A program made the position numbers. Below, one piece after another: positions 43,801 to 46,800 of a stretch of 51,595 bases of DNA (position 1 is its first letter; the number at the start of each line of letters is the position of its first letter). The DNA is from a virus (Duplodnaviria > Heunggongvirae > Uroviricota > Caudoviricetes): the IMG/VR virus record IMGVR_UViG_2711768017_000018. The stretch is one strand, 5' to 3'.

Positions 43801-46800
43801 ACGATCCGGACCAAAGAACGTGACAGCCTGTTTCACAAATTGTGTGCCGCTGTTACCCATCGCAGATACCCATCCCGCGTAGCGTTTCACACCTTCCAGC
43901 ATGGTTTCGGGGTTTACTCCCTCATTCAAACGGGCTTTCCAGGCTTTGAAGGCTGCAGATTTTGAATTGCCACCAGCACGTTTGGGATATGCCAGCCATG
44001 CCTGCTCAAACTCCGGAGAGTATTCCGGTCGGTTTGAACGAACTCGCACGGACTCATCAACTGATGCACCAACAGCTATTGGTTCATTGACTGGTTCTTT
44101 GACTGGTTCAAAAGAGTGACTGGTTCTGGGTGAATCTCCTGCACTACCCCCTGGTGCAACTCCTGCACTACCTGGTGAATTTGCTGCACCAGATAGTGAA
44201 TTATTTGCACTACCCCCTAGTGAATCTCCTGCACCATCCAGATGAAGGAGATAGATATTACTTGAGTTACCTTTTTCACCTTTCCGGGTGACTTTTTTTA
44301 CCAGCCCGGACTCACAAAGGGCCGCAATATGATTCATCACAGAACGTTTGCTAATTTCGCACTGGTCAGCAATATGCTGGTAGCTGGGCCAGCACTCACC
44401 CTGATCGCTGGCATTATCAGCCAGCTTGATCAGAACCAGTTTTCGCAATGGATTACCCACTCGAATTTTCATCGCTTTAACCATCAGCTCCATACTCATG
44501 CTGCACCTCCGAGATGCTTCATGTTTTTTCCGGAGCGAAAGGCTATAAGCGGCATACTGACGCGGTAATTACGGCCCAGCGGTTCACAAATCACCTTCTG
44601 GCATTCACGGTCAACCAGGCTAACACGTAGAACATGCCCTGCAGGCGTGGTGTACCACTGCCCAACTGTAGGAATTGATATTTTTTTACGCTGAAGCAAA
44701 CGGCAAATATTGAGGATCAACGGATTAAGCATGACGATGCCCTCCGCTGATATTCAGGAGACGGTGAATATGAAAATTAGCCTTATCCGCCAGACGAATA
44801 CGTTCAGCTTGCAAGTTAAGAAGGGTTTCTACCAGAACCTGATGTGCCTGCGGATCCGAAAGAGTTACCTTGCGCAGAGCACGTAGTGCAGTTGTTACAT
44901 AACTGAGTTTATGTAAGTCTTCATCATTCAGACGAGTGAGGGCTGGGACAGTAGCCATGATGGCAGCCTCCTTGATCGGTGAAATACTTCCACCACCGGA
45001 AACGCCAATTTCGCTGGTGGTGAACTGAACGGGGTTGGCGTAACCGGTGATCAAGGAAACCGGCGCATCTTTCGATGCCCCCGCCCAGCCCACCATAACT
45101 TTGATGTGAGCAAATGCGGACGATAAAAAAGACGCTGGCGCGTCATATATCGCCTTGATCAATTCCAGGACGCCAATCCCGGCACCCGCTTTATAAGGTG
45201 CCTGAACAGTGTAACGTCCCGGAATGGCAGAATCAATGTGCTGGTGGTCCTTCACACTCAACAAAATCACGCCTGAATTTCCACAAAGGACTAAAGCACT
45301 CATGCGGGTAGTCTTTGCGAAGATAGATAACGCGCTGTGTTTCTGGCTCCCAACGAATAACATGAACATAAAGTCCTCTTCCGTCACGAAACCAGCGGTT
45401 AAGTTCCTGCACAACTCGCCCCCCACAGTCAGGTAAAGTTCTCTGTGGTTACTTACAGCCAGGTGATTTGGTAATCTGCATTCATGCCGTAACAACAGGT
45501 GTTCAGCGACGCTGACCACCAGCTGTTGCGACAAACGGTTATTTGCCGTTAAACTGTTCATGCGTTAGTTTCTCCACAGACACAAAACGCCACGACGCCC
45601 GGAGCTGCACACTCGCGGGCGTCACTCTTTTCTGGAGCGCAAAAGATTTTGTAGACCAGTGCTGCATGCTCCTGGAGCTTCGAAATTGACAGATACAACT
45701 CATCATTAATTGCTGTCTGCTCGTGTGGCTCCACTACCCCATCTTCGATTGCCGAACGAATCTGCTTTGAGTAACTCCCGATCTGTTCGATGACTTCCAG
45801 CAGGCGCTGGTTTATATCGGCGTTCTCTACTTCCTCAATTTCAGGAAGCGATACAAACACCCCACCAGCAGACTGTGCGACAGCATCCGCAATGTAGTGA
45901 GTGCCAGCCGCGCGCTGTAAAATCATTGCCCATCCCAGCGGGAAAATCTGATCGCCATCTGCACGAAGGCGGTTGAATAAAGCGTTCTCTGTTACATCCA
46001 GCCACTCAGCAGCTTCAGCGTAACCCCCCGGCAACGCCGCGATAGTTTTTCTGACAGCTTTCACGTACCACTCAGGCTGTTTTTCTACTTTCCAGTGATG
46101 CTTACCCACGGTTAGCCTCATCGTTCTGTGGTTAAAAATTGAAGGTGTTCTGTTAATCTTTCGGATAGATATCCGGTCTTAAGTCAGATTTCGTAATTGC
46201 ACCTGACGTGCATTGCTCAAGTTTTTTAGCCAGCACAAAACTGGCTTTTTTATAACCATTGAAAACCAGCCGTAAGTAGCCTGGTGTTGAGCCAACTTTT
46301 CCGGCCAACTCACCCTGCTGTTCTTTGGTTAAAGAGTCCCAATACGCTTTCATACAATATGTACCTCCGGTATACATATTACATGATTGAGATGAACCTT
46401 CAAGATACTTGTACCTTATCGGTACAAAGGTTTTAATTTCTTTATGAAAACAGTCCATGACATCCGGCGGTCTAACGCCAGAAAACTGAGAGATGGTGTT
46501 GGCGGGAATTCTTCCTTTGCCACCATGATTGATCGCGAGCCAACCCAGACCAGCAGGTTTATGGGAGATGGTGCAACTAAAAATATCGGTGACAGCATGG
46601 CACGGCACATCGAAAAATGTTTCGACCTGCCTGTCGGATGGCTTGATCAAGAACACCAGACAACGAACATCACAAAAAAACCTGACGTTTCAATCACTAA
46701 CAAACAAATAACGTTAGTCCCTGTCATATCATGGGTACAGGCCGGAGCATGGAAAGAAGTTGGCTATTCTGAGGTTGATTTGAGCACAGCAGAAACTTAT

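Follow-up and report, generated by a model that had tools for sequence, protein, structure and literature searches.

A probable replication origin with dyad-symmetric iterons inside the initiator gene of a lambdoid prophage

Introduction

The phages lambda, P22 and L each carry iterons inside their own O or 18 gene (PMC8022706), and the origin of phage L was inferred from its repeats alone (PMC8022706). The locus described here is of a comparable kind and lies in the replication initiator gene of a member of the Caudoviricetes, represented by the IMG/VR record IMGVR_UViG_2711768017_000018. The whole stretch of DNA analysed, 51,595 nucleotides in length, is referred to as the window. Positions 44081-44278 of the window, situated within the initiator gene, are probably the replication origin of this lambdoid prophage, as judged from comparison with its relatives. 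The original prediction, a probable lambda-like origin with initiator-binding iterons in the initiator gene, is supported by this comparison.

The initiator class is common in phages of E. coli and Shigella and in Shiga toxin (Stx) phages, yet its replication is called 'not yet understood' in the replication-module passages of PMC12315714, according to which 34 of 314 lambdoid phages encode an O-like protein only. For the 'Eru' Stx phages, nothing is known about replication (PMC8951638). The replication module of the window belongs to this Eru6 or 'O-only' class. Iterons are mentioned neither in the text of PMC8951638 nor in the replication-module passages of PMC12315714. An iteron origin in a phage initiator gene is a known design, and iterons in an O-like gene will not surprise a specialist. 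New are the map of the origin, an invariant block at a fixed distance from the iterons and the modular logic of the cassette.

Repeat array of the window

Two kinds of repeat lie within the open reading frame (ORF) 43681-44499 (- strand), where they together encode residues ~89-140 (GAGDSLGGSANNSLSGAANSPGSAGVAPGGSAGDSP-RTSHSFEPVKEPVNEP) of the initiator. The features of this region are:

43681..44499, - strand: replication initiator gene, 272 amino acids, of the SfV orf39 / mEp460 / ST64B sb42 / Stx-phage 'Eru6' type
44220..44234, gene strand GTGCAGGAGATTCAC: iteron 1, promoter-proximal
44196..44210, gene strand GTGCAAATAATTCAC: iteron 2, the most degenerate, with half-sites kept and spacer altered
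44175..44189, gene strand GTGCAGCAAATTCAC: iteron 3
44154..44168, gene strand GTGCAGGAGTTGCAC: iteron 4, a perfect 5-N5-5 dyad (GTGCA/TGCAC)
44130..44144, gene strand GTGCAGGAGATTCAC: iteron 5, promoter-distal, ending 3 nt before the conserved block
44081..44127, gene strand AGAACCAGTCACTCTTTTGAACCAGTCAAAGAACCAGTCAATGAACC: GAACC-repeat block, containing three TGACTGGTTC copies, with a family-invariant core at 44093-44127

On the + strand, five copies of GTGAATCTCCTGCAC occupy positions 44130-44234, starting at 44130, 44154, 44175, 44196 and 44220 with 0, 2, 2, 4 and 0 mismatches, respectively, and a spacing of 24, 21, 21 and 24 bp. The five imperfect repeats of roughly 21 bp noted originally are confirmed as 15-mer units and are far in excess of chance. 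When up to two mismatches are allowed, GTGAATCTCCTGCAC matches four times in the window, every time within the array, compared to 0.10 matches expected from dinucleotide-preserving shuffles; four matches were reached in 0 of 100 shuffles. Further copies at this threshold, for example at a promoter, were not found anywhere in the window, and the matches with three mismatches at 43513 and 45398 are at chance level. Autoregulatory iterons at the promoter were rejected on this ground.

All five units are 5-N5-5 dyads (GTGCA-N5-TKCAC on the gene strand) placed about two helical turns apart, with conserved half-sites and variable 5-bp spacers. The array corresponds to nucleotides 266-370 of the gene and to residues 89-124 of the protein, between the N-terminal winged helix and the helical C-terminal domain.

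The second repeat, TGACTGGTTC, occurs in exactly three copies (44088, 44100 and 44117) and nowhere else on either strand of the window, with 0.03 copies expected from shuffles. These three exact repeats had been reported correctly. A fourth, partial copy (GGTTC) is located at 44081-44085.

Conservation of the array among relatives

A tblastn search with the N-terminal domain (N-domain) against 50,697 phage records yielded 157 records with identities from 100% down to ~41%. Sixteen annotated homologues from phages of Escherichia, Salmonella, Aeromonas, Vibrio, Klebsiella, Aggregatibacter, Stenotrophomonas and Pseudomonas were examined. Of the 17 N-domain genes (the window and its 16 homologues), 16 have an array at the same place, starting around nucleotide 265 of the gene, immediately behind the winged helix. 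Neither array nor block was present in Vibrio phage 1.036.O, the most distant relative examined (41% identity), and phage SI8 has a single unit at the array position. The units of all five lineage groups are 15-bp 5-N5-5 dyads of lineage-specific sequence, given here for the gene strand:

Window, cdtI, ST64B and AsXd-1: GTGCA-N5-TKCAC
Min27: GGGCAG-GAG-CTGCCC
S135, RothD, BUCT709 and S1249: TGCC...GCA types
Vibrio D186 and mEp044: GTGAY-N5-GTCAC
LESphi3: GCAG-N5-TGCAC

When the 200-nt linker region of the 17 genes was compared to shuffles, 12 genes, among them that of the window, were enriched in such dyads (P ≤ 0.04).

The array is present in every close homologue examined. Eighty IMG/VR loci have an N-domain that matches the window's with 99% identity or more, and all of them carry it, so the repeats are not absent from close homologues, a finding that would have spoken against an origin. 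These loci contain 4-7 iterons (mode 5) and 2-5 copies of GAACCAGTCA. Protein lengths of 242-302 amino acids among the clusters imply a range of roughly 1-9 iterons, of which 4-8 were seen directly. The variation in near-identical genes (4-8 iterons, 2-5 GAACCAGTCA units) indicates that both repeat types expand and contract in natural populations.

Individual phages illustrate this variability. In phage cdtI (locus L001, 2766-2936), an exact tandem duplication of 66 bp results in eight iterons and an initiator of 294 amino acids. Min27 (locus L002, 2796-2855) has three units where SI8 (locus L003, 2796-2810) has one Min27-type unit. The annotated C-terminus of the Min27 'O' protein is unlike those of SI8 and S135 from about residue 140 and resembles out-of-frame sequence, possibly reflecting a frameshift in the record.

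A separate O-like N-domain family features an intragenic array of its own, built from palindromic units with a 15-bp period (TCAGAATCTGA type). It was observed in SfIV gp41 (locus L015, 1949-2071), a solo gene accompanied by a PerC-like gene, and in phiP27 L17 (locus L012, 2305-2424), accompanied by DnaC-like and helicase genes. Both proteins share all or part of the C-terminal domain (C-domain) of the window's initiator.

Selection on DNA or on peptide

A second, unbiased IMG/VR sample was anchored on the conserved block alone. It comprised 108 usable loci, 103 of which encode an N-domain with the KLVLIKLA motif in the same ORF, and yielded 35 recognition-helix variants and 73 distinct arrays. 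Of the 226 spacings in these arrays, 205 measure 21-24 bp; the others either reflect the skipping of a degenerate copy (44-46 bp) or stem from distant chance matches. All arrays listed have a final spacing of 24 bp next to the block, or of 45-46 bp if a degenerate copy was passed over. With the block-proximal unit taken as the 15 nt that stop 3 nt short of the block, 67 of the 73 arrays show a 5-N5-5 dyad with no more than one mismatch at this place. Judged from these arrays, the repeats recur about every two helical turns and keep a constant distance from the block.

In 22 of the 73 arrays at least one spacing is not a multiple of three, and identical units are consequently translated in different frames. 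In mEp044, the identical unit GTGACACAGAGTCAC occurs at spacings of 22 and 23 bp and is read as VTQSH and DTESP; units of RothD and LESphi3 are likewise read in different frames. Vibrio phage 236O40-1 (locus L098, 2301-2340), with an N-domain 60% identical to that of the window, contains the window's exact GTGAATCTCCTGCAC inverted relative to the gene, in two copies 23 bp apart that are read as GESPAL and VNLLH. Frame-shifted and inverted units in relatives point to a constraint on DNA and not on peptide. From this comparison we conclude that selection acts on the iteron DNA rather than on the linker peptide.

Covariation with the DNA-binding domain

Between lineages, the N-domain hardly changes in residues 1-48. 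Residues 49-75 do vary, and with them the predicted recognition helix and the wing. Among the 35 variants, classes of recognition helix map onto classes of iteron:

Helix S[KR]RSV[MI]: GTGMA-N5-TKCAC, in either orientation
Helix SKSAVR / SRTAVR: TGCC...GCA
Helix RSTVK: GGGCAGGAGCTGCCC (GGGCAG-GAG-CTGCCC)
Helix RSTVR: GTAGGC types
Helix KRTAMR: GTGAC-N5-GTCAC, in a Vibrio phage and in an E. coli phage alike

Natural chimeras are in line with this correspondence. In P0066, P0069 and P0072, N-domains of the Min27, RothD and S135 types, accompanied by their respective repeat peptides, are joined to the C-domain of the window, and the junction lies at the block. Since chimeras keep the repeats of their N-domain, the iterons belong to the N-domain, as in lambda.

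GAACC-repeat block

The family-invariant block is ~35 bp long (AGAACCAGTCACTCTTTTGAACCAGTCAAnGAACC) and begins 3 nt after the last iteron. On the gene strand it reads AGAACCAGTCACTCTTTTGAACCAGTCAA(A/T)GAACC and encodes RTSHSFEPVKEP; in the window, the GAACC block corresponds to residues 125-140. GAACC occurs four times on the gene strand with spacings of 17, 12 and 12 nt, i.e. four copies in ~45 nt compared to 0.045 expected per 60 nt. The block's 12-bp units vary in number, and it holds a 5-N5-5 dyad of its own (TTTGA-ACCAG-TCAAA). Near-identical block DNA was found in phages from many gammaproteobacterial genera (Escherichia, Salmonella, Aeromonas, Vibrio, Klebsiella, Aggregatibacter and Stenotrophomonas), whatever their iteron type or C-domain; in the Pseudomonas phage LESphi3 it is reduced to four GAACC repeats. 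On the evidence of these relatives, the TGACTGGTTC repeats are not specificity iterons, but part of this block.

In pairwise comparisons of nine lineages, identical residues are encoded by identical codons in 95% of cases in the block (316/331), compared to 39% in the N-domain (743/1922). The difference between these values indicates a constraint on the block at the DNA level.

Lambda, 82 and phi80 share a conserved sequence next to their iterons. In the window, the block most likely represents the specificity-independent half of the origin and is a candidate site of unwinding or helicase entry, by analogy with the role played by the AT-rich region beside lambda's iterons (PMC7466680). It might even be an unrecognised universal origin element, namely a sequence-specific site of unwinding or helicase loading that is read by the invariant half of the winged helix or by a conserved host factor. 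We put this forward tentatively, as a possibility with less than even chances. If true, a universal block would let one portable cassette serve partners of the P, DnaC, DnaB or primase-helicase type, and initiator-only phages would turn directly to host DnaC-DnaB.

Alternatively, the block could be conserved as a recombination joint, a patch of homology used for swapping N-domain and iteron cassettes onto C-domains, and not be part of the origin. The junctions of the domain swaps fall exactly at the block, which divides the variable N-domain/iteron part from at least 10 different C-terminal domains. Mosaic lambdoid genomes are known to have conserved boundary sequences. A mere joint is harder to reconcile with block DNA that is near-identical across Vibrio, Aggregatibacter, Aeromonas, Stenotrophomonas and enteric phages despite synonymous saturation of the flanks, with a start 3 nt after a dyad-symmetric proximal unit in 67 of 73 arrays, and with internal 12-bp repeats that vary in copy number; these observations speak for a mechanical role. 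We consider the joint as the whole explanation rather unlikely; the two roles are compatible and do not exclude each other.

Initiator protein and its predicted architecture

The initiator matches the Pfam family HTH_36 (PF13730) over residues 17-67 (44.1 bits, cut-off 25, E-value 1.8e-11) and PHROG 270, 'replication initiation protein' (2.4e-88). As a PHROG label, 'O-like' describes function only. No match to Pfam PF04492 (Phage_rep_O) was obtained at E ≤ 0.01, the hits being HTH_36, DnaD_N (below its cut-off), B-block_TFIIIC and HTH_20. By these profile matches, the initiator is a winged-helix HTH_36 protein and not a member of the Pfam lambda-O family. The likeness to lambda lies in design, not in demonstrable homology. 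Two other assignments were rejected. DnaD or 'primosomal protein I', as homologues are annotated in several records, is contradicted by a DnaD_N score of 24.3 bits (cut-off 27) and the absence of a match to the DnaD C-domain. A plasmid initiator of the Rep_3 or RepA-RepE-Pi type is contradicted by the absence of a Rep_3 match in Pfam, a single winged helix in the model, the intragenic sites and the absence of a DnaA box.

Residues 1-140 and 135-271 match different PHROG families, which indicates a mosaic protein of two modules. An AlphaFold2 model computed from an alignment of 28 sequences divides the protein as follows:

44236..44499, - strand: N-terminal winged-helix DNA-binding domain, residues 1-88, model confidence (pLDDT) 80-94
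44029..44235, - strand: disordered linker, residues ~89-157, encoded by iterons, block and the following spacer; length polymorphism maps here
43684..44028, - strand: C-terminal helical domain, residues ~158-272, putative helicase or loader recruitment domain

In the model, the winged helix consists of helices 3-11, 17-29 and 40-47, the predicted recognition helix 51-64 and a beta-hairpin wing (67-85). Residues 91-157 are predicted to be disordered (pLDDT ~30), in agreement with the original placement of the repeats in a linker-encoding part of the replication gene, and the C-domain helices (162-224) reach values of 60-78. Foldseek returned only generic winged-helix matches (DnaD N-domain, MarR/PadR, TFE and the Orc1/Cdc6 winged helix), the likeness to DnaD-N (2v79) being at this generic level (E-value ~0.03). 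For the C-domain, neither Foldseek against the PDB nor NCBIfam gave a structural identity, and sequence searches of the PDB with the single protein and with a profile gave no matches.

The initiator has 5426 homologous protein clusters. At the DNA level, the gene shares 98-99% identity with the replication genes of SfV (orf39), mEp460 (99%), Ayreon, cdtI, Stx2c phages and Stx2a_WGPS2/1447 (98.3% for Stx2a_WGPS2). Of 5426 complete E. coli genomes, 2718 match part of the gene and 897 hold at least 80% of it. The type also occurs in SfV-type serotype-converting Shigella phages, in Stx2c and some Stx2a phages ('Eru6') and in the CPS-53 remnant of K-12 (yfdO/yfdN).

C-domain partners and helicase loading

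Scans of the neighbouring genes up- and downstream with Pfam and PHROG detected no P, DnaC-like, DnaB or primase gene beside the initiator of the window. The earlier statement that no helicase-loader gene lies nearby therefore holds: the neighbours are PerC-like, Dam, LexA-domain and RusA genes downstream, and a 78-amino-acid ORF, an Ash-family gene and a CII/CP76 gene upstream. In related phages, the N-domain/iteron/block cassette or the C-domain is found in the following settings:

RothD and S1249: cassette adjoining a lambda-P-like gene
Min27, SI8 and S135: cassette adjoining a primase-helicase gene
BUCT709 and phiV039C: cassette adjoining a DnaB-type helicase gene
AsXd-1: C-domain of the same family by inspection, not among the tblastn matches listed, with the same N-domain and iterons; DnaC-like gene (IstB_IS21, 9e-17), then DnaB
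phiP27 L17: 74% tblastn identity to the window's C-domain; DnaC-like gene, then helicase
75/02 Stx: 47% tblastn identity to the window's C-domain; DnaC-like gene
BcepIL02: 55% tblastn identity to the window's C-domain; DnaC-like gene
ST64B, SfV and Evi: the window's C-domain; no loader

The window has no loader gene, and the same C-domain is paired with DnaC-like loaders elsewhere, which suggests the use of host DnaC-DnaB. The simplest reading of these gene neighbourhoods is that the C-domain docks a DnaC-type loader-helicase complex, and that enterobacterial phages without a copy of their own would use that of the host. The 'P27' of PMC7466680 was dismissed as a guide to phiP27 L17, because it has a lambda-type O and is thus uninformative on the protein sharing the window's C-domain.

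AT-rich stretch and host-factor sites

One further feature was considered as an alternative unwinding candidate:

44236..44278: moderately AT-rich flank (~70% A + T), inside the coding sequence of the N-domain

This flank lies promoter-proximal to the iterons and encodes the closing strands of the winged helix. Of all 40-nt windows in the gene it has the lowest stability (z ~2.6 within the local 5.5 kb), followed by the block region (44076-44116). A strong AT-rich DNA unwinding element (DUE) was rejected, as profiles of composition and nearest-neighbour stability display modest minima only (z ~2.6 or less) and the G + C content never falls below 0.40 in 60-nt windows. The AT-rich stretch said to follow the repeats was confirmed in part: it is weak and lies on the side opposite to that in lambda. 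A-rich runs just after the block were observed in Min27, S1249, S135 and D173; the window has none.

Proposed mechanism and alternative explanations

The origin reading is supported by the presence of the array in close homologues and at the same position in distant ones, by the dyads, the phasing and the covariation, and by the independence of the reading frame. Sequence comparison shows the repeats with their dyad form and phasing, the selection at the DNA level, the covariation with the N-domain, the fixed distance to the block and the lack of a loader gene; from these we infer initiator binding, opening of the duplex at the block, recourse to host DnaC-DnaB and activity as an origin. In the proposed mechanism, the five 15-bp units would act as iterons bound by dimers of the N-terminal winged-helix domain, giving rise to a nucleoprotein complex resembling the O-some. 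The GAACC block (44081-44127) would be the common, specificity-independent part, where the duplex may open or the helicase may enter. The disordered linker, itself encoded by origin DNA, would tether the C-terminal helical domain, and this domain would recruit the replicative helicase, probably by capturing the host DnaC-DnaB complex. Transcription from the early rightward promoter on the cro side would read through the origin, as in lambda.

Several points weigh against this interpretation. A literature search found no binding, origin-activity or origin-mapping experiment for any member of the family. The best AT-rich candidate has only ~70% A + T and lies in the N-domain coding sequence, and the conserved block has ~55-60% A + T. 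Neither DnaA boxes (TTWTNCACA; TTATCCACA with at most one mismatch) nor the integration host factor (IHF) consensus were found in 43600-44600, and of the five GATC sites in this interval none falls within 44029-44300, so that no GATC cluster stands beside the array. The spacings of the window itself are all multiples of three, and the DNA-versus-peptide argument is drawn from relatives. The plaque-forming, P22-like phage SI8, which is paired with a primase-helicase, manages with its one unit, so that multiple iterons are not universally required; the prophage variants P0028 and P0042 have one or two units. The proposed recruitment of host DnaC-DnaB derives from gene neighbourhoods only, and it may not generalise: in Vibrio phage D186, whose C-domain is related (43% identity), none of the genes immediately downstream encodes a loader.

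One competing explanation accepts the 15-bp units as true binding sites of the winged helix and assigns them a regulatory role (autoregulation, roadblock or handcuffing), with replication starting elsewhere or depending on recombination. HTH_36 domains are also present in transcription regulators (PMC3832669), and passages of PMC12315714 discuss solo O-like lambdoid phages in the context of recombination-dependent growth. The lack of a clear AT-rich DUE, DnaA box or IHF site and of an encoded helicase or loader is compatible with this explanation as well. However, the sites are located mid-gene and not at a promoter, with no other copies in the window. Fusion of the N-domain/array/block cassette to C-domains beside lambda-P, DnaC-like, DnaB or primase-helicase genes is the signature of a replication initiator, and the architecture matches experimentally proven origins in lambda O and P22 gene 18 (PMC8022706, PMC7466680). 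We regard a purely regulatory role as improbable.

Slippage in a low-complexity Gly/Ser/Ala/Pro linker, leaving repeats with no function as DNA, would fit the in-frame units of the window (24/21/21/24), a plausible flexible linker predicted to be disordered and the polymorphic copy number, but it is highly improbable given the dyads, the 21-24 bp spacing, the covariation with the recognition helix and the codon identity of the block, and is effectively refuted already by the identical units in different frames (22/73 arrays) and the inverted unit with unrelated peptides in one Vibrio phage.

Taken together, an origin within the initiator gene is the interpretation we favour. The resulting map combines five dyad iterons with an invariant block and a modular recruitment domain. 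It would narrow the origin to ~200 bp and points to DnaC-DnaB as the candidate host function. Replication of Stx prophages drives toxin gene dosage, which makes the origin of practical interest.

Genomic setting

On the - strand, the gene order is cro, CII-like (CP76), Ash-family, 78-amino-acid ORF, initiator, PerC-like (yfdN), Dam, LexA DNA-binding-domain protein and RusA; the cI gene is on the + strand. A scan of the region for promoters and terminators gave counts no different from shuffles.

Upstream, a 278-amino-acid Ash-family protein (44725-45561, - strand) and a CII/CP76 regulator of the P4/186 type (45558-46121, - strand) are encoded between cro and the initiator. This pair defines the Stx-phage replication unit 'Eru6', and neither protein resembles a replication protein. 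Downstream, a putative transcriptional activator of the PerC family (yfdN-like, 164 amino acids, 43190-43684, - strand) overlaps with its start the stop of the initiator gene (ATGA). The pairing of initiator and PerC-like gene also occurs in ST64B (sb43) and SfIV (gp42) and is absent from cdtI. Two further genes follow in the initiator's operon:

42537-43223, - strand: Dam methyltransferase of the phage
42214-42540, - strand: LexA-domain protein, directly after Dam

The latter, with 108 amino acids, consists of the LexA DNA-binding domain alone (Pfam, 2.1e-19) and has no S24 peptidase domain. It could be a regulator binding SOS boxes or a decoy.

A terminator-like hairpin, TCACCTTTCCGGGTGA followed by CTTTTTTT, is located at 44276-44298 on the + strand, antisense to the initiator and within the winged-helix coding region. 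It may be a chance occurrence, since terminator-like sites (7 versus 4.4 in shuffles) are not commoner than expected.

Comparison with known systems

The closest design is the lambda origin in gene O, as found in lambda, 82, phi80 and 21 and, with six iterons, in the Stx phages 933W and P27. Shared are dyad-symmetric initiator sites in the middle of the gene (PMC8022706, PMC7466680); these sites also code for the linker that joins an N-terminal DNA-binding domain to a C-terminal domain for recruitment. In both systems relatives differ in their number of iterons, and additional iterons lengthen the protein, specificity follows the N-domain, and early rightward transcription passes through the region. 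The window differs in its initiator, which has an HTH_36 winged helix in place of Phage_rep_O, and in its units of 15 bp (5-N5-5) compared to ~19 bp in lambda. In lambda, transcription of O passes from the iterons into an AT-rich region; the window has the invariant GAACC block there instead, and it lacks a P gene or any other helicase or loader gene. The lambda paradigm is thus extended to a different winged-helix family, and nothing is overturned.

The gene 18 origins of P22 and phage L share with the window distinct iterons in a distantly related O-like gene and a phage-specific specificity (PMC8022706). They differ in that the initiator is paired with a DnaB-type helicase (gene 12), whereas the window has no partner gene, and the unit of L measures 11 bp.

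Iteron plasmid origins (RK2 oriV/TrfA, F ori2/RepE and pPS10 RepA) likewise have winged-helix initiators on phased direct repeats beside a repeat-containing unwinding element, and some plasmid Rep proteins carry HTH_36, e.g. those of the HTH_36 Rep plasmids of Paracoccus (PMC3832669). Plasmid iterons, however, lie between genes, are as a rule bound by monomers and have DnaA boxes and AT-rich 13-mers at their flanks, while the sites of the window are intragenic dyads with no DnaA box.

With its single O-like gene and no loader, the window is itself a member of the 'O-only' modules described in the replication-module passages of PMC12315714 and of Eru6 (Stx2a_WGPS2, PMC8951638). These passages and the Eru6 paper classify gene content only, to which the present comparison adds the anatomy of iterons plus block.

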